Virus record (IMG/VR): IMGVR_UViG_3300030497_000008
Coordinates: 1-64,000 of that record
Strand: one strand, 5' to 3'
Source of the DNA: a virus
Length of the DNA stretch: 64,000 nt
Both the position numbers and the translations under genes were made by a program. The notes under the pieces were generated by a model. That model had not been told where the DNA came from. It saw nothing but the letters and a program-made list of their open reading frames with translations, and ran no database searches. Shown piece by piece: positions 9,015-58,494 of the stretch. Within the stretch, counting starts at the first letter, position 1. Each line of letters starts with the position of its first letter.

Positions 9015-9018
9015 TGCT

Positions 9019-9087
9019 TAGTAGCTCCTCACAAAACGTGGGGAGTTTTTATTTTACTAGTAGCTCCTTACAAACACTTAGTAGCTC
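9019..9087 (+). repeat. Three TAGTAGCTC motifs (first overlaps a terminator-like hairpin 9025-9055)
   Basis: Copies at 9019, 9058, 9079; two more at 17826, 17856. Confidence 0.8.
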
Positions 9088-9145
9088 GCTGCAAACACCT
9101 TTCGACATATCGTATAATCTAGATTTGAATAGTAGTAATAGTTAT

Positions 9146-9160
9146 AATATTCTGAAAATT
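9146..9160. promoter_or_regulatory. CodY-box-like site upstream of the early cassette region
   Basis: AATATTCTGAAAATT, 1 mismatch to AATTTTCWGAAAATT. Confidence 0.6.
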
Positions 9161-15700: not shown

Positions 15701-18522
15701 TAATATGAAAACGAGAATTGATGTAAACGAAAGAACGTGTGTACATGTAGAGGGTGATTCCCTTAAAATCAATCAACTAAACCCACTCGCGAAAGATGGA
15801 TTTGATTATAAGGCGATTTATCTAGATAAGCAAGAGTTCGAACACATAGCGGAGGAGCTCAACGCCTTTGACGTACCAGAGGAGCATATTATATATGGTA
15901 GTCAATTGAAAGATTTATCTAACGAGGAGTTAATTAAGTATCATGAGCGATTAGAACACTGGATAACAAAAGGATGGAAACATGAAGGCTGCTACATCTT
16001 GCAAGATTATGTGAAGTATGAAATGTTAGACAGAATGAGAGGAGCTAACAATAATGGCTAAAATAGAAGAAATCGAAAAAGGACGTTACATGGTTGTACT
16101 ATCACAAGCAGAACTTAATACTATCTCACTATTACTGGGAGCATACGAAGGAGACGACTATATCAGAAAAATCGGTGCAGAATTTGAAGACTACCCACAT
16201 GAACCAGATAACGCAAATAACAACTACGTGACAGGCATTGCGGGAGATGACCTATTTAATGCATTCAAGAATCATAGAACTATCTTATGAGGCTGTGTGA
16301 CGTTCCTAGACAATGGCAATGTATTTGTACTCATAAAATACTACAGGAGCGTCACAGGCTCAACAGACACGTTAAAACAAATAAAAGGAGATGTGTACAA
16401 TGAGCAACGAAAACACAAAATCAATTGAAAATGTTATAGCGACACTAGAGGACAATTTATCAACAGTTGTAAGTACTAAGATATTAATTGAGTCTAGAAT
16501 GGATTTAGCAAACGAAAGAAAAGACTACTATAGACGAGAGAAAGAAACAGAACTAGAGAATGCCATCAACCGTGAAGTAAAGGCGCTATACTCTCACCTA
16601 TTAACATTAGACTTACAAACCAAACAACTACAGTCAGTTATTAAACAATTGAAAGGAGTTGCATTATCATGACATTCTTATCAAGTAAAGAAATATATAA
16701 AAGAAACTGCGAGCTTATAGCGGAGGAGTTCACAAAAGATAATGATTACATTGTAGAGGAAATGTACACAGATACAATAGGCACATACCAGTATAAAGTA
16801 AAGTTAAAACATATTGATACAGCTATACTCGTTAGTTACAATAATGAAACACGTAAATATGAGGGATATGTACAATGTAATCACCCAGACTTTCACCAAA
16901 CGTATAATATAGAATCAGAAATAACAATGGAAATATATAAGTTCATTCAAAGTAAAGTAGAAATGATAACAAGAATACTCATATATTGTAAAGACTGGTA
17001 GCCAACACATAGAATATAATAAAGGAGATGTGTATAATGATAATAGCAAAAGTAATGGATATAAGAGAAGGTATTTCAGAGAAGAAGACATTTAAGAATG
17101 GAATAGAACTAAATGAATATCTTAATAATAATCCCTTTGTAATAGTAAGACATAAAGAGTATATACCAGAGGAGGCGGAGAAATGATAAGAGAACCATAT
17201 ATAAGCCCGTTCACACTATATACAATAAATGAACTACATATAACAGCACGACAACGAGCGTATAACGATTATCTAGATATGGTAAGAGGTTATTATGAGC
17301 CGCATGAAATACTTGGTTATGTAGAGTTCAAAAAGAAAGCTATAAGAGAGTCACAGTATTATTATAAAGACGGAACATTCTTTGATTTGTAGAAAGGAGC
17401 TGTATATAATGGAAGTATATATAAATGAAATAGTGATTGTAACGTATGAGTCATATAATAGTGAGTGGACTATAGAAGGGAAGGTTAAACGAGTTACACA
17501 ACATCATATGGTTGTGACAGTAGAGAAATATAATAAAGTTCGTGATAGATATATACCGATAGAGCACATAACCAACGTTGATATTATAACACCTTATAAT
17601 AGTATATAATACATAGCCTGAGAGCTCAATGAAATTAGTCAGAGCCTCAGGTGTTTCCTTTTGTAATAAACAACAAAACTCGTCGAGCCCAACAAAAGGA
17701 GTTAGAGCCTCAGGTTTTATTTTTCAAGTGTTGCTCTAGCTAGGTATAACAAGTTGCATCTATAATCGATTCTATTGATATACTTGTCTATTATTCTGAT
17801 AGTCGAAATACTCTGACAATTTACTTAGTAGCTCACCACAAAACATACGAAAGCCTAGTAGCTCCTTGCATACTAGACTCATATATAATCCCTCTATTAA
17901 AATGTTAAAATTCCTCCGCTGCTGCCTCTATCATACTTTCATAGAATTGTCAAGTTAAATACGCACGACAAATTACAACATTAAATTGTGTGAATATTAT
18001 ATACAATTCGTACAAGCTCGACAGCATTTTTGTTTCTGACATTAGAATACTATAGACGACAGTAAATTACAACATTGTCCCATTTAAAAGTGTATTCATA
18101 ATATTCTGACAATTTGAATAGCGTGAATAGTCTGACAATTAGAGTGATTATAATTAGTTAAATATTCTGACAATTTAAAATAGTTGTCTATATTATCAGA
18201 TAATTAAGAATATTCTGTTATATATAATAGTGTGAATAGTGAGAGTATTCTGACAATTATGATGAACAGGAGCAGAGGGAGTTGTCTTAGTATTCGTAAT
18301 AGTCTGACAATTTAAATGTTATGAATGTTTAGAATAGTCTGACAATTAATATACACAATCTTCATACTATTAAGAATATTCTGATAATTCTGATAATTCA
18401 AACAATTAGCATTAGATTGAATATTCTGACAATTGTTTGATACGAGCTGCTCCAGAGTTATTATAATATTCTGACTATTTAGACGATTCAAATTATCAGA
18501 CAATTCAGAATACATTATTAAC

Positions 18523-18551
18523 TTGACAATCGAGAGCGGGTGTGTTATATA
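18523..18551 (+). promoter_or_regulatory. Sigma-A-like promoter inside the repeat array
   Basis: TTGACA-17 bp-TATATA with extended TG. Confidence 0.6.
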
Positions 18552-18561
18552 TGGGGAGCTG

Positions 18562-18642
18562 TTAGAATAGTTAGAATAGTTAGAATATTTAGAATAGTTA
18601 GAATATTTAGAATATTTAGAATTATCAGACTATTTAGAATAT
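18562..18642 (+). repeat. Nine tandem 9-bp units, consensus TTAGAATA(G/T)
   Basis: ttagaatag x3, ttagaatat x4, ttagaatta, tcagactat, in register. Confidence 0.95.
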
Positions 18643-18917
18643 TCATATTATCAGACAATTATATATGAAACTGTTAGTCTGGGAAGCCTTGATATGACTG
18701 GTCTGAGAGGCTATTTCCTCTGTATGGGCTTCTAGAAGGCTATCTAATACAAATACTAGGGCTATAGGTTAAAACGCCTCTACGGGCTTCTGAGAGCCTT
18801 TAAAATAGATTTGACAAATAATAGATTGTGTGGTATGGGAAGTAATTATAATATTCTGACTAACTGAATATTCTGACAATTCAACTTCTACTATATATGC
18901 ATGAGCAGGTGCGCGCG

Positions 18918-18946
18918 TATATACCACACTAGAGCAGCTATGTCAA
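18918..18946 (-). promoter_or_regulatory. Sigma-A-like promoter pointing back into the array
   Basis: Minus strand TTGACA-17 bp-TATATA with extended TG. Confidence 0.6.
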
Positions 18947-19156
18947 GTATTAAATGTATTATAAATATTCTGAAAATTTAGAATAAACTTTCTTTTACTT
19001 TTTGTCATAAAAGGGTTGTCAGCAGCGTATAATAATAGTAAGATGAAAGCAGTTAAGGAAGCGACAAACTTCCCCAAAAATAATTAAAAAAAGTACTTGA
19101 AATACTCATTAATAAATGGTAAGATGAACTTAACAAATCAAAGGGAGCTGTTGGAA

Positions 19157-19645
19157 ATGACAAATACTTACAATTTAAATCAAGAGGTACAAGTGGAAAT
19201 GGTAAGCGGATTCGAATTAGAAGGGAAGATTGTAGACTTCACAAGCGCTGGGGATATCTGGGTAGAACGTCACTCTGATAAAGATTGGTTGCTTGTAAGT
19301 CCAGAGCTTGACAAAGTGACTATCATTGAGAAAGAGGAGGAAGTGCCAGCACCTCACAGCATCCGCACTCTTAAGGAGCTTAAAGCCCTTATCAAGGAGG
19401 AGCTAACTCAATACTGGTATGAGGAGATTGAGAGCGTTAAGGTAGCTGTATATAATAGCGATGAGGACGGAGCAGAGGTATACGACTGTGAGGTTCAAAT
19501 TGTACTTGACAGCGGCGATACTCTATATCCTACATTTGGTACTTATTACAATGAGAAAGAAGCCCTTAAAGCTGCTCGCGATATGCGTACTAAATTAAAG
19601 CGTACATATGATATTACTGAACAAGTATTCATGTACACTTGCTAG
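19157..19645 (+). CDS. Early acidic hypothetical protein
   Basis: ATG after AAGGGAG behind promoters at 19016 and 19097. Confidence 0.75.
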   Translation: MTNTYNLNQEVQVEMVSGFELEGKIVDFTSAGDIWVERHSDKDWLLVSPELDKVTIIEKEEEVPAPHSIRTLKELKALIKEELTQYWYEEIESVKVAVYNSDEDGAEVYDCEVQIVLDSGDTLYPTFGTYYNEKEALKAARDMRTKLKRTYDITEQVFMYTC

Positions 19646-19680
19646 AATATTCTGACAATTTAAAACTAATATAAAGGGAG

Positions 19681-20040
19681 ATGTTTATTATGTTAACTGT
19701 TAAAATGGAGCTTGCTATTATTGAATTGAAAGGGATTGCTAATCATGCCCACTTCTTAGCCGACCAGTGGGAGCAGGGCATTGCATATAATACTGATATT
19801 GTCAATGATATTAATGATAGACTAATCAAGGCTAGTGAGCATATAGAAGGCGCGTTCAATACCACTCGTAATGGCATCATAGCTATTGAAATGCAGTTCA
19901 TTGAGAGCCGTATTAAGCAGGTCTATAATGGTATCTATATAGGCGATAGAGTCACTAGCACTGGACTATCATACCTAGCAGAGGCAGCCTATCAGACATG
20001 CAAGACTATCACTACATTTGCTATGGAGGTGAGCGCATGA
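19681..20040 (+). CDS. Hypothetical helical protein
   Basis: AAAGGGAG RBS; CodY-like box at 19646-19660 in the preceding gap. Confidence 0.7.
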   Translation: MFIMLTVKMELAIIELKGIANHAHFLADQWEQGIAYNTDIVNDINDRLIKASEHIEGAFNTTRNGIIAIEMQFIESRIKQVYNGIYIGDRVTSTGLSYLAEAAYQTCKTITTFAMEVSA

Positions 20041-21322
20041 GCCTATACTATACTAGTGATACTTATGTCATTGATATGCCCGTAAAGACTCATAAAGGCT
20101 GGACATTTAACGTCCATACATTCGAGGGTATACTCGTTCGGGAATGCACGTATTGCACTAAGTCATCTGCTATGAAGGCTCGCACACGTGAACGTCGAAC
20201 GCGCATGAGTGAAGGAGCTAAAGTTATCTATATCTAGAATCATAAATGTATTAGGTTGTCAATGATTATTTTGTCAACCTTTTTATTTCAATTTATTTTA
20301 CCATTTCATTTGACATATAACCCCACCCGTGCTTTACGACCATGTGTTCGGTTACCTCCCCTCTCTACCCCGACTACCTCAGGTAAAAATCCCAGAAAAA
20401 TTTTGAAAAGTCGCTATATCTATCTTGCACAAGAATTCTAATAGCAGCCCCATAATAGCAGCCCCTTATATAACTCCTAAACCCTACTTATTCATAATGG
20501 CATCTAGTATAAGGATAATGCAGCCCGCTACTCCTAAGTTGAATAATATATAGCACGTAGCAGCCCTAAAGTATGCTCTATCTGTCATCTGGTCATATAC
20601 GTACCTTGTCTTTAACTTCTCCATATATAAACTGGTTAACCACCCAACCGTTAAAAGTCCTACTATTCCTATAATATGTAATAACATTCATGATACCTCC
20701 TTAAAATTTCCTAAAAATTTTTCGACTTGGTTTAAAGGTCACTTCCATATTTTACCAATTTAATAGTTATAGAAAGAGAGGTTGTTAGCCTCTCTGTGTT
20801 ATTGTTTATCTGACAAGGTCTGCTATCATTGATGATAGAATGTCTACTGCTACGGTAACTCCTGTTATAAGGGCTAACATACCGTATATGACTAACTTCT
20901 TAACGTCTTCTTTCTTTATCTCTTCGAATGCCATTTTAATGAAACTATAAGAAGAGAATAAGAATATGGTGATAAATATAGTTCGTAATATCATTTTATG
21001 TACCTCCTAGAATAATATAAGTATGACTGTGGATATGCAGATAGAGGAGACGATACCTGCGAAGAGGTTTAGGTCTCTCTCGTCATCTCCTGTAAATGAG
21101 TCGATAATGTATGCGATAATATCCCATAAGAAGAGGCATATTATCATTATGTATTTGATATCGGTACTCACCTACTGTTCCTCCGCTTCATCTAGTAATA
21201 TGTCTAATGCCTTTTTCTTAAAGTCCTCTATAGGAATATTTTTCATGAAGAAGTGTCCTCCATAGTCTCCTTTAATAACGACTGTCTTTTTATCTTCTGA
21301 TAGGAACATCATAACTGACATA

Positions 21323-49420: not shown

Positions 49421-49669
49421 TTATTTTTTGTCCTTTAATCCCCTCACTTCCTCATCTGACAGCTCTGCAAATAAATCCCTATAGTTCATATTGAACATAT
49501 CTTCCAACTGCATCAATTTATCTTTTCTAGGGAATCTGAGACCTCGTTCCCAGTTACTAACTGTACTATAACTAACATTTAGTTTCTGACATAACTCAGG
49601 AATGTCAATATTCCTATCTAATCGAACCTTTCTTAAACGCAATACAACTTCTTTATTTTTATAAATCAT
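49421..49669 (-). CDS. XRE-family HTH transcriptional regulator
   Basis: ELCQKLNVSYSTVSNWERGLRFP. Confidence 0.9.
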   Translation of the reverse strand: MIYKNKEVVLRLRKVRLDRNIDIPELCQKLNVSYSTVSNWERGLRFPRKDKLMQLEDMFNMNYRDLFAELSDEEVRGLKDKK

Positions 49670-49987: not shown

Positions 49988-50213
49988 CTGTGTCAGAGAT
50001 AAACCTAATAGAAGTGTGTATCAAGATGTAGAAGGTATTTACTATAGAATAGGACTAATTGTATTCATTAAGGTATAAAACATCCTCATCGAGCTCTCAG
50101 ACCCCTTAAAAGTTAAATTAATATGTGTATGCGTTGTGTAAATTCCATCAGAAATAATTATTCAGAATATTTAAAATATTTTTTATAATTACAAGGATTC
50201 TTGTATCAGATTT

Positions 50214-50223
50214 TGTTATAATA
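50214..50223 (+). promoter_or_regulatory. Late promoter motif TG(T/C)TATA(T/A)TA ahead of the ncRNA/tRNA cluster
   Basis: Same motif at 44546(-), 48113, 51700, 55064, 56865, 56935, upstream of late genes. Confidence 0.7.
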
Positions 50224-50415
50224 GAGTTGTAGGATGTTCCTCCTGCGGTATCCATGTTCTCTCCTCCTCTAACCTCGTGAAGACAAGGATATCATTCGTA
50301 AGTTTAATACGCCTTAGAGCAAATGTGCGGAAACACGTTTTCTCTCCCTTTATTAGAATTTTCTTATACCCTTTGCATGTCAGTACGATATGTAGGGGGT
50401 AACTTTTTATATCAT

Positions 50416-50488
50416 GTGCTTGTAGCTCAGTCGGTAGAGCGCCAGATTGTTAATCTGATGGTCGTTGGTTCGATTCCAACCTAGCACG
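50416..50488 (+). tRNA. tRNA-Asn(GTT)
   Basis: Cloverleaf, anticodon loop TT-GTT-AA, TTCGATT T-loop, G73. Confidence 0.9.
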
Positions 50489-50578
50489 TTATCATCCTTT
50501 CAATTATCGTAACTCATACTCAACCAAATATACGGTTGACTACACCTACCTAAGCAGGGAGACGATAGTTGAATTTCA

Positions 50579-50652
50579 TGGGTTAGTGGCTTGGTTAGCT
50601 CAGAAGCCTTGAAACAGCATCTGCGATGGTTCAATCCCATCTCTACCCACCA
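50579..50652 (+). pseudogene. Degenerate tRNA-like element
   Basis: Acceptor TGGGTTAG/CTACCCA, T arm GATGG-TTCAATC-CCATC and CCA end, but non-canonical D and anticodon arms. Confidence 0.55.
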
Positions 50653-50655
50653 CAT

Positions 50656-50729
50656 GGGAGTTTAGTTTAGTGGTAAAACCTCGGTCTCCAAAACCGAAGT
50701 CATATGTTCGATTCGTATAGCTCCTGCCA
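50656..50729 (+). tRNA. tRNA-Trp(CCA)
   Basis: TCGGT-CT-CCA-AA-ACCGA anticodon arm, encoded CCA. Confidence 0.92.
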
Positions 50730-50730
50730 C

Positions 50731-50818
50731 GGAGGGTTGGCAGAGTGGATTATTGCAGCGGTCTTGAAAACCGCCGAGGGTAAAACCTCCGTGAGTTCAA
50801 ATCTCACACCCTCCTCCA
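50731..50818 (+). tRNA. tRNA-Ser(TGA)
   Basis: GCGGT-CT-TGA-AA-ACCGC, long variable arm, encoded CCA. Confidence 0.93.
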
Positions 50819-50820
50819 TT

Positions 50821-51392
50821 GGGGATATAGTGTAGAGGTAAACACGCAAAAAGGAGCAGTAAAATGCCGACTTGTAAAAAATGTAATGTAGATTTTCCAA
50901 ACTTCATGAAAATAGAAGGTAAACGTCGCAATTTACAAAAACGTCAGTATTGTGTTGATTGCAGTCCTTTTGGTAGACGTAATACAAAACAGATACATTT
51001 AGATAACAACAAAGAGATTGAGTGTACTTGTACCTTATGTGGTAAAGATTATGTATATGCTCGTAGTACAGGATGCACAAAGACTAAATGTAACACTTGT
51101 TGCGTTAGGGTTAATAGACAGAAACTGAAAATCAGAGCGGTAGAGTATAAAGGTGGCGCTTGTCAACGCTGTGGCTATAACAAAAGTTATAGAGCCTTAC
51201 AATTTCACCATCTAGACCCAGAAGAGAAAGATTTTCAGATAGGCGGAAAAGTTATTCTATGGGATAAAATCAAAAAAGAATTAGATAAATGTATTTTACT
51301 ATGCGCTAACTGCCATCTTGAAGAACACGAATCTCTTGATAACCTTAAATTACGTCTACCGTGAAGCACGGGTTCGAACCCCGTTATCCTCG
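50821..51392 (+). pseudogene. tRNA-Asp(GTC) split in the anticodon arm by a 505-nt HNH insert
   Basis: 5' half 50821-50848 (GGGGATA, D arm GTGT/ACAC); 3' half 51354-51392 (GTC-TA-CCGTG, T arm ACGGG-TTCGAAC-CCCGT, TATCCTC-G); acceptor strands pair. Confidence 0.85.
50864..51364 (+). CDS. HNH endonuclease with N-terminal zinc fingers
   Basis: GGACQRCGY...LQFHHLDP...CILLCANCH..EH; several CxxC; RBS AAGGAG. Confidence 0.9.
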   Translation: MPTCKKCNVDFPNFMKIEGKRRNLQKRQYCVDCSPFGRRNTKQIHLDNNKEIECTCTLCGKDYVYARSTGCTKTKCNTCCVRVNRQKLKIRAVEYKGGACQRCGYNKSYRALQFHHLDPEEKDFQIGGKVILWDKIKKELDKCILLCANCHLEEHESLDNLKLRLP

Positions 51393-51538
51393 TAAACTAT
51401 AAAATCTCAGTCATGTTGAGATAGCTTAGGCGAAACCCTAAGCAAAGCATGTCCGTCCTAAGGAGACATTATAAAAAGAAGGCAAACATGACGTGGCGAG
51501 CTATCCGCAGACACGTAAAAGAATAGATAGTGATACAT

Positions 51539-51613
51539 GCCGAAGTAATCCAATCAGGTAGAGATAGCGGTTTTAGAAACCGTCCAGTGAGGGTTCGACC
51601 CCCTCCTTCGGTA
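51539..51613 (+). tRNA. tRNA-Leu(TAG), short variable loop
   Basis: GCGGT-TT-TAG-AA-ACCGT, GAGGG-TTCGACC-CCCTC, A73. Confidence 0.85.
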
Positions 51614-51622
51614 TCATATTTT

Positions 51623-51704
51623 GGCAGAATAGTCAAGCAGCAACGACAGGTGACTGTAAATCACCCCTCATTCGAGTTCGCAGGTGCAAGTCCTGCTTCT
51701 GCTA
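51623..51704 (+). tRNA. tRNA-Tyr(GTA), atypical D and T loops
   Basis: GGTGA-CT-GTA-AA-TCACC, variable arm, acceptor GGCAGAA/TTCTGCT, A73. Confidence 0.85.
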
Positions 51705-51761
51705 TATTAAAACATGACGAGAGTTTTTATTCTCGTCTATACTTATTTGAGGGGGCAATAC

Positions 51762-52598
51762 ATGATAAATGTGAAGGATTTTAGTGGATTAACACCTGCC
51801 GTACAGATACAGAATGCTATCAATGCAGCAGCCTTATCAACATCTTCATCAAAGACCGTACTGCTAGAAGAGAAAGATTATTACCTTGAATCATCTCTTA
51901 CATTGCTAAATGATGTAGAGTTATTGTTTGGCTACCGTTCAAGACTAGTTATTGGTGGTAATTTCCCTGTTTTATTAATAGGGCGAAATGCTTCTGTCAC
52001 AAATCCATTCATAGCTATCGATTCCCCGAATTTTGATTCACTTGTCTTTTCCTTTGACGGTAAGAATAAATATTACAATACATGGAATAAGACAGCTATA
52101 AAAGATGGTGTAGTCGTTAACTGGACAGGTTCTCACAAAGGTGTTGGTATCCGACTCTTTTCTGGAGGAACTGACCATGAGATTTCATTTGTGGATATAT
52201 CGAATGTCAAATTAGTCGGTCTAAGAAAAGGTATTGAGCTAGAGGCTAAAGCGCCAACAACAGGAATGGCGTGGGTAAACGCTAATAGATTCAATAACAT
52301 TTCCATAGAAGACTGCGTAGAAATGATTACGATTGACAGTAGTGAGACAATCCCAAATGAATGTAGTGGTAACATTTTCTCAGGACTTCAACTACAACCA
52401 TCTACAGCAACAACAAAAGTCTTGAAAGTAAGCGGGCAGCATAACCGATTCGATGGTATGCTCTGGGACATCTCGTTAATACCTACAGCTAAATTCGTAG
52501 ATATTACAGCGAACAGTTCCTACACGAAAATAGACTTTAATCGTTCCTTACCTAGTACGAAAGTACAGGATAGTGGGGCGAGCACAATATTACTATAG
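51762..52598 (+). CDS. Pectate-lyase-like right-handed beta-helix protein
   Basis: N-terminal NVKDF.G....IQNAINAA motif and Asn/Gly-rich beta rungs; ATG after GAGGGGG. Confidence 0.6.
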   Translation: MINVKDFSGLTPAVQIQNAINAAALSTSSSKTVLLEEKDYYLESSLTLLNDVELLFGYRSRLVIGGNFPVLLIGRNASVTNPFIAIDSPNFDSLVFSFDGKNKYYNTWNKTAIKDGVVVNWTGSHKGVGIRLFSGGTDHEISFVDISNVKLVGLRKGIELEAKAPTTGMAWVNANRFNNISIEDCVEMITIDSSETIPNECSGNIFSGLQLQPSTATTKVLKVSGQHNRFDGMLWDISLIPTAKFVDITANSSYTKIDFNRSLPSTKVQDSGASTILL

Positions 52599-52618
52599 CG
52601 CATTCGTGCGCTTTTCTT

Positions 52619-52705
52619 GGAGGGGTACTCAAGCGGTGAAGAGGTTAGTTTGCTAAACTAATAGGTCGAGTAATCGGCGCGAGGGTTCGAATCCCTTCCC
52701 CTCCT
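52619..52705 (+). tRNA. tRNA-Ser(GCT)
   Basis: TTAGT-TT-GCT-AA-ACTAA, long variable arm, GGAGGGG/CCCCTCC acceptor. Confidence 0.92.
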
Positions 52706-52845
52706 TACTAGTTTTATGGTGAGTATAGCTATACGCTGTGCTCATTTTTTATGCCCTATTTTACGGGTAGATATTTGTACATGGTATAATTAAAGTAAGG
52801 AAAAAGTGTTGAAAGCATTATATTAATAGAGATAGAGGTGTTGTC

Positions 52846-53112
52846 ATGAGCTTTCATCAAGTAGAAGATGTATGGATTAAAGCGAAGTCTCTCCTATCTC
52901 AAGGATACACGTGGATTGAGGTTGTAACATACTACAAAATGCTAGGTGGTATGAAAGTGAAGGTATACGTCTATTTAGATAGAGTGAAATATAGAATCGT
53001 AGGCGTTGCAGAAGAACCAGACAAAGTACTCCTAGAGAATAAACACGGAGAGATAATTAGGGCAAATTACACAGATGTCAAGAACGGTAGGAAGAAGTTC
53101 GATTGCGATTGA
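52846..53112 (+). CDS. Hypothetical protein upstream of portal
   Basis: RBS GAGGTG; position directly before the portal gene. Confidence 0.7.
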   Translation: MSFHQVEDVWIKAKSLLSQGYTWIEVVTYYKMLGGMKVKVYVYLDRVKYRIVGVAEEPDKVLLENKHGEIIRANYTDVKNGRKKFDCD

Positions 53113-53144
53113 GCTTTGCCCTATTTATTTTATTATAAGGTGGT

Positions 53145-54824
53145 ATGCAAATGAGCTTTTTAGACTTTTTTAGGTTTAAAAAACGCCCATCTACGACGAC
53201 ACTGGAACTTATGAATCCAGTAGATAAGCAGGAGCTATCTATTGCAATACGAGGGTTAGAAGAAGAGACAGTAATGAAGAGCGCAAACGCTGGTCAAGGA
53301 CGAGCTAAGGCGTATGAAGAGCCTATATTAGGTCAGTTCTCTATTAATCCAGATTACAAAGAAGCCCCGTCAAAAGATGGACGATACAACTTGCTAGAGA
53401 ATTTAAAAATCTGGTCAAGTAAAAATATTATTGTTAACGCAATTATCAACACCCGTGTGAACCAAGTATCAATGTTCTGTTCACCCGCCCGCTACAGCAA
53501 CAGAGGTGTCGGCTATGAGGTTCGATTAAAAGACCCATTAAAGACCCCTTCGAGTCACGAGAAAGCGACTATCGAGCGTATAGAGTCGTTTCTGGAGTAT
53601 ACAGGACGAGTCAAGGATGATTTTACACAAGATAACTTCCGAGCGTTCATTAAGAAGATTACTCGTGATAGATTAATATACGACAAAATAAACTTTGAAT
53701 TGATTTACGATAAAGATGGAGAGCTTGGTAGATTTAAAGCTATTGACGCATCCACCATTTACGTAGCAGTCGATGAAAAAGGAAAAGAGCGTAAAGGCGA
53801 TAACGTTGAGAAGTATGTACAGGTTTTAGACCGTAAGAAGGTCGCAGGGTTCAAAGCGAACGAGATGGCATGGGAAGTACATAATCCTCGAACAGACATC
53901 CACGTCGGACGATACGGGTACTCAGAACTTGAATTATGTTTAGAGCACTTACAGTACCATGCAAATACCGAGTTATTTAACGCTCGTTACTTTGCTCAAG
54001 GTGGTACGACTCGCGGGTTATTACATATTAAAACAGGGCAAGAGCAATCTCGTCATGCGCTACAGTCATTCCGTCGTGAATGGCAAACAATGTTTAGTGG
54101 TATTAATGGGGCATGGAAGATTCCAGTTGTATCAGCAGAAGATGTTAAGTTCATTAACATGACACAATCATCTCGTGATATGGAATTCGAAAGATGGCTA
54201 AACTACCTTATCAACGTTATGTGTAGTATTTACGCTATCGACCCTTCTGAGATTAACTTCCCGAACCGTGGCGGAGCGACAGGTAGTTCTGGTAGTACTC
54301 TAAATGAAACGAGTGCTAAAGAGAAGAACCGTATCTCTCGTGACAAAGGTTTAGAGCCGTTACTTAAGTTCTTAGAAGATATCATTAACAAGTACATCGT
54401 ATCTCAGTTCGGAGATAAATACATATTCGTATTCGTAGGTGGAGATGCAACGACAGAGAAAGAGATTCTAGAATTACTAGAGTTGAAAACAAAAGTCGGT
54501 ATGTCATTCAACGAAGCGCGTAAAGTACTTGGATTACCAGAAATTGAAGGCGGAGACGTTATCAATAGTGCGTTCCACGTTCAAAGTAAAGGTCAGATTT
54601 TACAAGAAAAACTTATCCAGTCTAAAGCAGCACAAGAAGGCTCAGACGATAAACAAACATCTGAGATGAAGCAGCAAGGTTTAGATGGCTCTAACGCTAA
54701 GGTATCTGGTAAAGATAATGGCGTGGGTAAGGATGGACAAGTTAAAGGTAGTCGTAACGCTAACTCTACTAAAGAGGGAGGTAAAGGCGAAAATGGAGAA
54801 ACGTATAATCGAGATACTCGATGA
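53145..54824 (+). CDS. Portal protein
   Basis: YGYSELE, NARYFAQGG..RG, FRREW....G..GAWKIPV, DMEF, IDPSEINF motifs. Confidence 0.92.
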   Translation: MQMSFLDFFRFKKRPSTTTLELMNPVDKQELSIAIRGLEEETVMKSANAGQGRAKAYEEPILGQFSINPDYKEAPSKDGRYNLLENLKIWSSKNIIVNAIINTRVNQVSMFCSPARYSNRGVGYEVRLKDPLKTPSSHEKATIERIESFLEYTGRVKDDFTQDNFRAFIKKITRDRLIYDKINFELIYDKDGELGRFKAIDASTIYVAVDEKGKERKGDNVEKYVQVLDRKKVAGFKANEMAWEVHNPRTDIHVGRYGYSELELCLEHLQYHANTELFNARYFAQGGTTRGLLHIKTGQEQSRHALQSFRREWQTMFSGINGAWKIPVVSAEDVKFINMTQSSRDMEFERWLNYLINVMCSIYAIDPSEINFPNRGGATGSSGSTLNETSAKEKNRISRDKGLEPLLKFLEDIINKYIVSQFGDKYIFVFVGGDATTEKEILELLELKTKVGMSFNEARKVLGLPEIEGGDVINSAFHVQSKGQILQEKLIQSKAAQEGSDDKQTSEMKQQGLDGSNAKVSGKDNGVGKDGQVKGSRNANSTKEGGKGENGETYNRDTR

Positions 54825-55114
54825 GCTAGAGCTTAAGCTAGACACTCGAATGTATGATGAAGATGTTTTAGAATATTACAATATCGATGAACTTGTATTA
54901 TTCAGAACATTGACAATTGATTGTCACATGCATCCTTCTATCGCAGTAGACTGTTTAGCTAGTAGAAACATCGATAGCATAAAAGAGTTGAATAAATTCT
55001 TTAGTCGATATTTACCATTAATGAAATTTAATTAACAAAAAACTCTGGTCTAAGTGGTACTTTTGCTATATTAATAACAGTTGAATTCGTACCACTTAGA
55101 AAGGAGGAAAATAT

Positions 55115-55927
55115 GTGCATACAGTCGTAGACAAAGCAACAGGAATGTTCAATATGTTCGTTCCAATCGATATCAAAGAATCTATCAAAAAGAATGATGA
55201 CACACCTTCTGAGCGCTCATGGTACTTACAAGGTTACGCTACAACTACAGACTTAGATAGACAAGATGACATCGTAGACCCAGCAGGTATTGACATTAGC
55301 TACTTTATGAATCACGGATACATAAATTACGAACATAAACAAGGTGACTTCTATAAAGTCGGAGTTCCTACGGAGGGTACATACGTAGACCCCGATGTAG
55401 GTCTATATCTTGAATGTAAGTTATACAAAGAAAATCCTTATGCAAAGAGCATGTGGGACTTAGCGAATAACATTTCTAAATCTGGAATTGATAGGAAACT
55501 AGGATTCTCTGTTGAAGGTTTCTGTTTAGCCAGAGACAAAGATGACCCAAGGATTATGCGTAAACTCCGCGTAACGAACGTAGCTGTTACCACTAATCCT
55601 GCTAACCCTCAAGCTACATGGGAACACATCATGAAAAGTTTCCAAGCAGGTTATGGAATTACTCCCGAAGATTCAATCGATGCGGGAGCGTTAAGCCCAG
55701 AAAACTTCGCTCGTAGCCTATACAATTTAACATGGGCTCTTAAAGAGACTGACGATAGTAAATTTGAAGAAGTATGGAAGAAGGTAGGTATCTACTTAGA
55801 TGATATGAATAGAAACATGCCTGAGTGTGCCGTACTATTCTTACAGATTTCAAAAGGTATGTCTCGTTCAGAAGCCTTAGAACATATAAAAACGGTGTAC
55901 ACACCTAATAAAAAGGAGAATGAATAA
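55115..55927 (+). CDS. Prohead (capsid maturation) protease
   Basis: GYATT..DRQDDIV, INYEH, GFSVEG, VAVTTNPANP. Confidence 0.9.
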   Translation: MHTVVDKATGMFNMFVPIDIKESIKKNDDTPSERSWYLQGYATTTDLDRQDDIVDPAGIDISYFMNHGYINYEHKQGDFYKVGVPTEGTYVDPDVGLYLECKLYKENPYAKSMWDLANNISKSGIDRKLGFSVEGFCLARDKDDPRIMRKLRVTNVAVTTNPANPQATWEHIMKSFQAGYGITPEDSIDAGALSPENFARSLYNLTWALKETDDSKFEEVWKKVGIYLDDMNRNMPECAVLFLQISKGMSRSEALEHIKTVYTPNKKENE

Positions 55928-56835
55928 TGGCAGAAGTTAAAATTTCAGAATTAACAAAAGAGTTAGAAGAGGTATCAAAATCTGTTGCGATTCCCGTAGA
56001 CGAAGTAGTTGCTCCAGAAGCCCCAGAATTTAAACCTGAGGATAAAGAAAAGGAAGAAGACGAAGTAGTCGAAGCTCCTAAGGAAAAGAAAGAAGATAAA
56101 GAACCTGAGGATAAAAAGGAGGAAGCACCAGTGGAAGAAGTAGTCGAGAAGTCGGATAAAGAAGACAAGAAAGACGAAAAGGAAAAAGAAAAAGGTAAAG
56201 AAAAGTCCGATAAAAAAGAGGATAAGAAAGACAAAGATAAAGATAAAGATAAAGAGGATAAAGAACCAGTAGCGAAATCTGCCGAAGCTTTAATCTCTAA
56301 TGGTGAGTTAATCTCAGCATTCGAATCTGTTGTTAAATCTTATGGTGCAGTTGCAGAGTCTCAAAACGGATTAGCAGAGCGATTAGAACGTATCGAGAAA
56401 TCAGTCTTACCTATGATTGAGAATATCGCAAAACACATCGAAGAGCTTAAAGCTAAAGAAGTAGTAGAAACTCCTGCCGAAAAGCCTAAGGAAGAAGAAG
56501 AGGAAGTAGTAGAAGAGGATAATACCGAGGATACGAAACCAGAAGAGAAAAAAGAAGAAGTCTCTAAATCTATGAACGACGACCTAGAAGGCAAAGGAGT
56601 AGAATACGTTCAGAAATCTGCGGATAATGTTTTAGTAGAGGACGAAGAGGAAGCTCCTGAGGAAGAAGAAGTCTTCAAAGCTGCTGACCACGTTAAGGAG
56701 GTAGTAAACTATTACACATCTGGTCAAGCTTCTGCTAACGAGCAATACTTCTTATTCGGTGCAGTAAACCGTGTTAAAAACGGTCGTGAAACAGAAGAAG
56801 ATGTTAGAGCTTTCCGTGCTATTGTAGGTAAATAA
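55927..56835 (+). CDS. Scaffold-like acidic/Lys-rich head assembly protein
   Basis: E/K/D low complexity, recurring (V/E/A)KS sites, between protease and capsid genes. Confidence 0.65.
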   Translation: MAEVKISELTKELEEVSKSVAIPVDEVVAPEAPEFKPEDKEKEEDEVVEAPKEKKEDKEPEDKKEEAPVEEVVEKSDKEDKKDEKEKEKGKEKSDKKEDKKDKDKDKDKEDKEPVAKSAEALISNGELISAFESVVKSYGAVAESQNGLAERLERIEKSVLPMIENIAKHIEELKAKEVVETPAEKPKEEEEEVVEEDNTEDTKPEEKKEEVSKSMNDDLEGKGVEYVQKSADNVLVEDEEEAPEEEEVFKAADHVKEVVNYYTSGQASANEQYFLFGAVNRVKNGRETEEDVRAFRAIVGK

Positions 56836-57054
56836 TTAGAAAATTAGAAAAACATAGTACGAAGTGTTATATTATACTCGTAAGCTCAAAAAAGGATTGG
56901 TAGCGACCTCCTCCTAAGCTACCTCTCCTCCATGTGTTATAATAAATATATAGGGGAAAACAAGTGGCGGTCGAGTACCGCACGTAAAAGTCAGAATACT
57001 CAGAAAATTTAGTTTATAAAAACAAACAAATCATATTGAAGGGAAGAATAATTA

Positions 57055-58494
57055 ATGACAGAATTGAAAAAAGAAGCAGAAGCTAAGAATAAAAAGCTTC
57101 CTGTCGAAGCAGAAGCAGAATTAGCAGAATTAGTGTCTAAGTCGTTTACGACTGGTTATGGCATTACACCTGATACACAGTTAGATGGAGCAGCAGTTCG
57201 TCGAGAACTATTAGAAGACCAAGTTAAAATGCTTGCATTCTCTAGCAACGACTTCACTATTTATCCGTTAATTAACAAACAACAAGTAAATAGTACAGTT
57301 GCTAAATACGCAGTATTCAACCAACATGGTCGTACTGGTCACAGCCGTTTCGTACGTGAGGTCGGAGTAGCTTCTATCAACGACCCTAACATCCGTCAAA
57401 AAACGGTTCAAATGAAGTTCTTATCTGACACTAAGCAACAATCACTTGCTGCTGGTTTAGTTAACAACATCGCAGACCCAATGACAATCTTAACGGAAGA
57501 TGCTATCGCGGTTATTGCGAAATCTATCGAGTGGGCTATTTTTTACGGTGACGCAGCATTATCATCTGAGGCTGATGGACAAGCAGGTATTGAGTTCGAT
57601 GGTTTACATAAACTGATTGACCAAGATACAAACGTAATCGACCTTAAAGGTGCTCGTTTAGACGAAGCTACTTTAAACAAAGCAGCAGTTATTGTAGGTA
57701 AAGGTTATGGTCGCGCTACTGATGCGTTTATGCCGATAGGGGTGCAAGCTGACTTTACGAATAATCTATTAGACCGTCAACGTGTAATTCAACCGTCAAC
57801 TGCTGGTGGATTCTCAACTGGTTTCTCTATTAACCAATTCTTATCTACTCGTGGTGCAATCAACTTACATGGTTCAACAATCATGGAGAATGATAACATC
57901 TTACTTGAAGGTCGTAACCCAGAGCCTAACGCTCCTCAAGCGCCAGCATCTGTAGTAGCTTCAATTGTGGATGACAAAAAAGGTGGATTCCGTGACGAGG
58001 ACATCAAAACTCATTCTTACAAAGTTGTAGTTCATTCTGATGATGCAGAGTCATTACCATCTGAGGCAGTTACAGCAGCAGTTGCGAAAAAAGACAACAC
58101 GGTTAAACTTGAAGTTAAACTAGCTTCTCTATACCAAGCGCAACCACAATTCATCTCTGTATACCGCGAAGGTACAGAAACAGGTCACTACTTCTTAATC
58201 GCTCGTGTTCCTGTATCAAAAGTAAATGACCAAGGTGTAATCGAAGTCCTTGACCGTAACCAAGTAATCCCTGAGACTACTGACGTATTCGTAGGTGAAT
58301 TAACTCCTAACGTTGTGAGTTTACTAGAGTTACTACCAATGATGAAATTACCATTGGCTCAAATGAACGCTACAACTACATTCACAGTTCTTTGGTACGG
58401 TGCATTAGCATTATACGCTCCGAAGAAATGGGTTCGTATCAAAAACGTTCAATACATCCCAGCTCTTGCAGCAGATGTTACAGTTAAATACTAA
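57055..58494 (+). CDS. Major capsid protein
   Basis: KSFTTGYGITPDTQ..GAAVRRELL, Herelleviridae MCP signature; tandem late promoters upstream. Confidence 0.95.
   Translation: MTELKKEAEAKNKKLPVEAEAELAELVSKSFTTGYGITPDTQLDGAAVRRELLEDQVKMLAFSSNDFTIYPLINKQQVNSTVAKYAVFNQHGRTGHSRFVREVGVASINDPNIRQKTVQMKFLSDTKQQSLAAGLVNNIADPMTILTEDAIAVIAKSIEWAIFYGDAALSSEADGQAGIEFDGLHKLIDQDTNVIDLKGARLDEATLNKAAVIVGKGYGRATDAFMPIGVQADFTNNLLDRQRVIQPSTAGGFSTGFSINQFLSTRGAINLHGSTIMENDNILLEGRNPEPNAPQAPASVVASIVDDKKGGFRDEDIKTHSYKVVVHSDDAESLPSEAVTAAVAKKDNTVKLEVKLASLYQAQPQFISVYREGTETGHYFLIARVPVSKVNDQGVIEVLDRNQVIPETTDVFVGELTPNVVSLLELLPMMKLPLAQMNATTTFTVLWYGALALYAPKKWVRIKNVQYIPALAADVTVKY

Follow-up and report, generated by a model that had tools for sequence, protein, structure and literature searches.

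CodY-like boxes of a terminal-repeat array and their dispersed copies at early, tRNA-region and capsid sites of a Bastillevirus-type phage

The closest documented precedent for operators of a host regulator in a lytic Bacillus phage is that of Spo0A in phi29 and Nf. In these virulent phages boxes for a global regulator of the host are found at both early and late promoters, the lytic programme is tied to host physiology, and the number and position of the sites vary between related phages (PMC2731898, Castilla-Llorente, Meijer, Salas). A second system is that of the Bacillus phage SPbeta, where a 15-bp element (SPBRE) is present at many intergenic promoter regions of one genome and has a single reader, MrpR (PMC10516654). 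A third comparison is provided by the CodY operators of the Firmicutes, which are 15-bp dyads with a C-W-G centre and AT-rich arms (PMC10415144, PMC5633148, PMC5966866). The boxes discussed here are located in positions 1 to 64,000 of IMG/VR record IMGVR_UViG_3300030497_000008; this stretch, referred to as the window, is the first 64 kb of the 161,391-bp genome of a Bastillevirus-type myophage, a phage of the B. cereus group. About 20 copies of a 15-bp dyad box fill an array in the collapsed direct terminal repeat (17807-18978, with the consensus copy at window:18100-18114). By the measures described below, the satellite boxes at 9146, 19646, 50157 and 56986/56995 are dispersed copies of this box, of graded quality.

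The satellites resemble CodY operators in architecture and, at one to three mismatches for four of them, in sequence. CodY sites of 24 nt are composed of two boxes that overlap by 6 nt, and neighbouring phage boxes lie in the same 9-bp register. As with CodY operators, boxes are found upstream of, over and downstream of promoters. Unlike the known operators, the phage sites are carried on a lytic phage genome, and their family consensus is asymmetric, with two of its positions fixed off-consensus. A roadblock in the capsid leader would respond to nutrition the wrong way round. Compared with phi29 and Nf, both regulator and motif are different; for phi29 binding, repression and spore entrapment were shown by experiment (PMC2731898), whereas the present case is a prediction from sequence. 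SPbeta differs in being temperate and in having an identified, phage-encoded reader (PMC10516654), while the boxes described here also occur in unrelated phages. The site at 50157-50180 can also be compared with UP elements and class I-type activator sites, since it is AT-rich, centred at about -61 and located upstream of a promoter without a -35 element. In contrast to an UP element, its conserved part includes a C-W-G core in a dyad, and the start from which its position is counted is only predicted.

The initial annotation had listed the four loci together with boxes at 20705 and 50166, and each of these boxes has the letters reported for it at the position reported and is intergenic on the map of open reading frames (ORFs). 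Compared with the published 15-bp CodY consensus, 9146 has one mismatch, 19646, 20705 and 56995 have two each, and 50157 has three. The partner boxes are poorer: 50166 has four mismatches and has lost the central C..G core, and 56986 has five mismatches with the core retained. Judged as CodY operators, by a central C-W-G kept within a few mismatches, 9146, 19646, 56995 and 50157 qualify, but 20705 has no central G and 50166 has no core. In the whole window there are 33 consensus matches with up to three mismatches against 8.5 expected, and nearly all of this excess is contributed by the array (17.8-19.0 kb). With the array left aside, mismatch counts compared with dinucleotide shuffles point to enrichment, and at up to two mismatches there are three intergenic matches to the CodY consensus versus 0-2 for control motifs. 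Mismatch counting alone proves little for the satellites, because such controls, which are composition-matched with the same A/T tracts and with C/G swapped or reversed, match nearly as often when three mismatches are allowed.

A clearer separation is obtained with a position matrix trained on 54 TCWGA-anchored boxes from the arrays of three relatives only and used to scan the whole 161 kb. Array copies score 16-24 bits with this matrix. The top matches outside the array are 19646 (23.3 bits, rank 4 genome-wide), 9146 (19.0), 47259 (coding), 50157 (13.8), 22700 (coding), 56995 (12.5) and 56986 (11.7), while 20705 (2.2 bits) and 50166 (0.8 bits) rank only 199 and 292. Five intergenic matches of at least 11.5 bits lie outside the array, compared with 0.38 +/- 0.66 expected from dinucleotide shuffles (0 of 200 reach five); in coding sequence two were observed and 4.8 expected. 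Control matrices that were reversed, C/G-swapped or A/T-swapped gave 0-1 matches, and five matches were reached by 0.5% of 200 column-permuted matrices. The best 24-mers outside the array, measured against the 24-nt overlapping model, are found at 9146, 56986 and 50157, with four, five and six mismatches, respectively. The near-invariant A10 and T15 of the 24-nt site are present at all three, and their partner boxes are weak. On the strength of the matrix scan and its controls, the four loci can be regarded as real members of the array family, and one reader for the array and its satellites is a reasonable assumption because these loci are dispersed members of that family. The proposal that the same factor acts at every listed site therefore holds up for 9146, 19646, 50157 and 56986/56995 but not for 20705, which is not a family member. 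By their scores, 20705 and, on its own, the half-box 50166 are look-alikes by base composition, that is, noise.

Site 50157 consists of a box at 50157-50171 and an AT-rich second half at 50166-50180. It is located upstream of an extended -10 promoter on the plus strand (50214-50222; TG, one base, TATAAT) that has no recognisable -35 and is conserved in Bastillevirus and Bequatrovirus. Counted from the start predicted by the -10 hexamer at 50217-50222, the composite site extends from about -72 to -49 and has its centre near -61, where upstream activator sites and UP elements typically lie. Identity to the Bequatrovirus phage AvesoBmore is 0.88 over 50151-50180 and 0.4-0.55 in the flanks, and these 30 nt are the best conserved of the intergenic region in the comparison with Bequatrovirus, exceeding the -10 and the RNA loop downstream. 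In the closest public record, Bacillus phage Maceta (Bastillevirus, 91-97% identity), and in a near-identical complete relative from IMG/VR (G001, 159,837 bp), the first box is invariant and the second half has a substitution and a 1-nt deletion. The spacing between the box and the extended -10 is constant within 1 nt. No box was found at the equivalent place in Wphvirus or in five Caeruleovirus genomes. At the 50217 promoter a -35 is missing in the genera with the box, whereas Wphvirus, which has no box, has a near-consensus -35 there. On its matrix score 50157 is a weaker copy of the family, and by this comparison a selectively conserved one. Of the annotated 50157/50166 pair only the first box belongs to the family, 50166 having no core, and the composite site is a conserved island in the comparison with Bequatrovirus. 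The possibility that the box serves as the -35 of a sigma-A promoter of its own (50161-50189) was considered and rejected, as the matching -10 is not conserved in Bequatrovirus though the box is.

The first product of the 50217 promoter would be a conserved structured RNA of about 185 nt (50226-50412, plus strand) with an exposed CU-rich loop that resembles an anti-Shine-Dalgarno sequence. Its predicted minimum free energy is -53.2 kcal/mol (z = -4.4), and it ends in an intrinsic terminator at 50367-50401, with tRNA-Asn beginning at 50415. Four genera, Bastillevirus, Wphvirus, Bequatrovirus and Caeruleovirus, retain the CU-rich hairpin. A search of Rfam over 49.6-57.1 kb returned tRNAs only and no family for this RNA, which is a candidate phage small RNA. 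Bequatrovirus retains both the 50157 box and the structured RNA but is without tRNAs at this place. The site had been described as lying upstream of the tRNA-cluster promoter; it does lie about 60 bp upstream of a promoter, but the structured RNA with its own terminator comes first and the tRNAs follow.

Two further satellites are found in the early region and, on their matrix scores, are full-strength copies. Box 19646 (19646-19660, plus strand) reproduces the array consensus exactly. It separates the first two genes that follow the array, some 20 nt ahead of the ribosome-binding site (RBS) of the second terminal-repeat gene, which starts at 19681. Counterparts occur at the same position in the Bequatrovirus phages AvesoBmore (L008:1998) and BigBertha (L009:1683). 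Box 9146 (9146-9160, plus strand) differs by a single letter from the array consensus and likewise from the CodY consensus, is identical to the last array copy (18964) and directly follows a -10-like hexamer. It is also the best match outside the array to the 24-nt model. The presence of 9146 in G001 is uninformative because the flanks are about 97% identical, and no alignable orthologous DNA was found in other genera for the regions of 9146 and 20705. The look-alike at 20705-20719, just upstream of the RBS of a minus-strand gene (20484-20687), is conserved only in G001. The intergenic region of 9146 (at 9015-9100) and the left edge of the array (at 17823-17866) also share another family of repeats, in which TAGTAGCTCC precedes ..ACAAA. 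The first terminal-repeat gene (19157-19645) is highly divergent in G001, while its flanks and the next gene are conserved.

The array itself is shared with several related phages. The 15-mer of window:18100-18114 fills both direct terminal repeats in BJ4, SalinJah, BPS10C, AvesoBmore, BigBertha and TsarBomba, and array flanks carry a degenerate extension with 9-bp periodicity. Among the genomes compared, arrays appear to be limited to one Bastillevirinae clade (Bastillevirus/Wphvirus/Bequatrovirus/Tsarbombavirus). Array boxes were also considered as -35 elements, and this was ruled out by the lack of a consistent -10 at the correct spacing. The ortholog of array box 18964 has C at position 11 in G001 and A in the window, which suggests that site turnover tolerates either base there.

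Clusters of the box family occur in at least three phage lineages. In other contigs an exact-match scan of IMG/VR identified dense clusters with the same half-site repertoire and with 9-bp runs, in which the commonest full site is again that of window:18100-18114. The complete genome G004 (123,246 bp) has 29 boxes versus none for a control pattern, and 25 of the 29 are around the genome ends. In the complete genome G005 (62,439 bp) a stretch of 1.3 kb contains six boxes, of which four form a single 9-bp run, and 8.8 kb of contig L034 contain 27 boxes, some of them in runs of three at 9-bp spacing. The nearest known relatives of G004 and G005 are distant, and a Herelleviridae capsid protein was not found in either; the other contigs are fragments in which its absence is uninformative. 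The box-bearing lineages share with the window phage only replication-type enzymes, at 21-36% identity. BLAST found no small DNA-binding protein common to them, although divergent small proteins can escape BLAST. A host reader is favoured because the same box family occurs in lineages that share no detectable small DNA-binding protein, and a common host reader is the simplest account of these clusters. Another IMG/VR contig, L075, also has box-family clusters near a genome end or in an early region. A protein of no known family is encoded within the box-rich regions of both G004 (1135-1905) and L034 (5596-6336).

To our knowledge CodY is the only regulator with operators of such sequence and of 9-bp overlapping design, and for this reason host CodY is the leading candidate. 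In sequence the boxes do not go beyond the variation among accepted CodY operators. Two of them, the array consensus copy and 9146, are listed letter for letter as predicted CodY boxes of thrC and ilvD of S. salivarius, which are CodY-derepressed genes (PMC5966866). CodY reads mostly DNA shape, tolerates up to five mismatches and binds cooperatively at overlapping sites (PMC10415144). This consensus also holds for the CodY proteins of B. cereus and B. anthracis, and an upstream site with four mismatches is bound by CodY in vitro and is required for the activation of clhAB2 expression (PMC5633148). In Bequatrovirus a perfect overlapping CodY-type site (24/24) is located 2 nt upstream of a consensus -35 (AvesoBmore, L012 108393-108416; also BigBertha, L013). 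No CodY-type helix-turn-helix (HTH) protein was found to be encoded in the phage genome, and a literature search for CodY sites or CodY-type boxes in these phages returned nothing relevant.

Graded, dispersed copies of one box with a host-encoded reader, for which CodY is the candidate, are the best explanation of these observations, and we hold it tentatively, with something short of even confidence. A dimeric DNA-binding protein would bind the boxes and stack on sites that overlap by 6 bp, and it would be encoded by the host. The 50157 site with its AT-rich extension would most likely help to recruit RNA polymerase, either through an upstream activator or as an UP-like element, and the recruited polymerase would produce the conserved structured RNA first and the tRNA cluster by read-through. 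The boxes at 9146 and 19646 would be part of an early-region operator set. The sequence matches, their statistics, their conservation and their occurrence in other lineages are shown by the analysis; who reads the boxes, whether regulation is positive or negative and where transcription starts are inferred.

Several observations weigh against a CodY reading. Outside the array, the CodY consensus has nine intergenic matches with up to three mismatches and the control motifs have 6-7. The array motif is sharper and more asymmetric than the CodY optimum and avoids the consensus base at position 11, where, of the 79 TCWGA-anchored boxes, 54 have C, 18 have T and only 5 have A. The left arm carries A at position 4 and the right arm T, the orientation of the array boxes is biased (59 versus 20), and a consensus-perfect arm is present in just 2 of the 79. 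Unrelated lineages prefer this full site too, off-consensus as it is, which suggests that the optimum of the reader is not the CodY consensus. The ortholog of the perfect Bequatrovirus site in the genome studied here (genome position 129225) keeps the AT pattern and has lost both C..G cores. Caeruleovirus phages, which infect the same hosts, have no array and no box at the tRNA promoter, and no arrays were found in the Herelleviridae phages of B. subtilis, B. megaterium, Listeria and Staphylococcus, hosts that all have CodY. Lastly, box 19646 is lost through an indel in G001, the closest complete relative and otherwise about 97-99% identical, and it must be considered dispensable because this close relative is without it. 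In place of the box array, Caeruleovirus (L027 Deep Blue 1-330 and other loci) carries another short repeat that shares the TTCTGAC core, with 4-5 copies clustered ahead of the tRNA genes.

The evidence is least favourable at the major capsid protein gene (57055-58494, plus strand; assigned from the ORF list and the annotation of relatives). Two weak boxes in 9-bp register are located in its mRNA leader at 56986-57009. Relative to the predicted start they lie at about +37 to +60, and the ATG is 46-69 nt downstream of them. Nowhere else in intergenic DNA outside the array do two TCWGA cores stand 9 bp apart, and the pair is identical in Maceta and G001. The structural regions of Wphvirus and Bequatrovirus are about 65-80% identical to that of the window phage. 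The identity of the pair is 0.46-0.62, not above its flanks; it drifts in Wphvirus, where one box with two to three mismatches persists, and is gone in Bequatrovirus. Upstream of the capsid gene, what the three genera conserve is a pair of promoters together with a hairpin whose loop is CCUCC-rich. One promoter is the extended -10 promoter of the gene itself (56935-56943, plus strand). The other is a second promoter (56845-56873, plus strand) with a conservation peak of 0.83, whose -35 is overlapped by a consensus match of up to three mismatches at 56831 and whose hexamers resemble those of SPO1-type late promoters. The hairpin lies between the two promoters (56899-56931) and has a CCUCCUCCU loop followed by a second CU-rich run. 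A role of the box pair at the RNA level was considered and set aside, the leader being unstructured (z = 0.12).

An ample supply of amino acids and GTP is the condition under which CodY binds DNA. A roadblock by CodY in the leader would therefore repress the capsid gene in rich conditions, which is the opposite of the nutritional logic that had been proposed. The pair is probably weak or without effect, and CodY gating of the capsid gene is not supported, given the polarity of CodY and the loss of the pair in Bequatrovirus. Conservation of the boxes relative to flanking DNA had been named as one of the checks. It favours 50157, through Bequatrovirus, and not 56986/56995, and it is divided for 19646, which is kept in Bequatrovirus and missing in G001. 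The broader claim of a CodY regulon that gates early genes, tRNAs and capsid is not established, and it is weakest for the capsid.

A reader encoded by the phage is a serious rival, because the motif is sharp and asymmetric, its off-consensus preference is shared and its distribution does not follow the hosts; taken as a whole it seems to us somewhat unlikely. A sequence-specific phage protein would read the boxes as MrpR reads the SPbeta element, with the satellites as additional operators. Early promoters have their -10 and start site overlapped by many of the array boxes, so that binding would shut early transcription off on schedule, and the likeness to CodY boxes would be coincidence or mimicry. 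In every genus the oriented array consensus shows the same deviation from the CodY optimum, and the arrays are confined to one Bastillevirinae clade and are missing from Caeruleovirus on the same hosts. Seven of nine array boxes in Bequatrovirus abut a -10 hexamer, as do 9146, 18465 and 18850 in the window, and a 15-bp repeated element at about ten promoters is known to be bound by a phage repressor (PMC10516654). A difficulty is that the same box family, with the same full site, occurs in lineages without a shared detectable DNA-binding protein. The two genes inside the terminal repeat and the genes beside 9146 match no DNA-binding family in Pfam or PHROGs. Next to 50157 there is a divergently transcribed gene for an 82-aa Cro/C1-type HTH protein (49421-49669, minus strand; Pfam HTH_3, E = 9e-8). 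It has a homolog in Bequatrovirus (51% identity) and is absent from three Wphvirus genomes, and its occurrence thus tracks that of the 50157 box in exactly the two genera that keep it. As a general reader this protein is ruled out, since those Wphvirus genomes have arrays; a matrix scan found no box-like site near its own promoter, and it is a minor candidate for 50157 only.

We regard it as unlikely that only 9146 and 19646 are genuine, as spill-over from the array, and that the 50157 and capsid sites are ordinary promoter and leader sequence resembling an AT-rich consensus. On such an account the AT-rich stretch 50157-50180 would serve a strong promoter as an UP-type element, the stretch 56986-57009 would be A/U-rich leader for translation, without structure, and no dedicated regulator would act at the tRNA or capsid promoters. 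The nearly equal counts for the control motifs at up to three mismatches and the four to five mismatches of the partner boxes agree with this. The coreless half-box 50166, at about -59 to -45, is retained as plain AT-rich sequence in Wphvirus, the perfect site of Bequatrovirus and its decayed, coreless ortholog are both directly upstream of a -35, and the capsid pair is predicted to be single-stranded and is conserved no better than its flanks. However, 50157, 56995 and 56986 rank 4th, 6th and 7th of all positions outside the array in the 161 kb and are all intergenic, a result that column-permuted and swapped matrices rarely reach. An UP element has no need of a TCWGA core, yet the core is part of the conservation peak at 50151-50180, and two intact intergenic cores exactly 9 bp apart are found only in the capsid leader.

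The strongest form of the CodY reading, that host CodY directly programmes a virulent myophage by binding the early boxes and by activating the -35-less promoter from about -61, so that the anti-Shine-Dalgarno-like RNA and the tRNAs would follow the GTP and amino-acid state of the host and unrelated lineages would have converged on the same sensor, is quite improbable as judged from these sequences.

Two weaker boxes were seen elsewhere in the genome. The stretch 54897-54935 of the window, in a small ORF between the portal and protease genes, consists of a box with three mismatches and, directly after it, a perfect inverted repeat built from the right arm of the array. Outside the window, a box with three mismatches at genome position 92233 (10.2 bits) is kept in G001; it directly adjoins an extended -10 promoter, and the gene at 92290-94062 follows downstream.

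If a host sensor reads the boxes, the satellites would be places of regulatory output, while the terminal array could be a mere docking or titration site. Site 50157 offers a compact test case, with one conserved box at a fixed distance from a -35-less promoter and upstream of a conserved small RNA. If the reader is a phage protein, the satellites define its regulon. If a nutrient sensor of the host reads the boxes, a strictly lytic phage would be wired into the metabolic signalling of its host, a connection to host signalling that has so far been documented mainly for Spo0A in the phi29 family.

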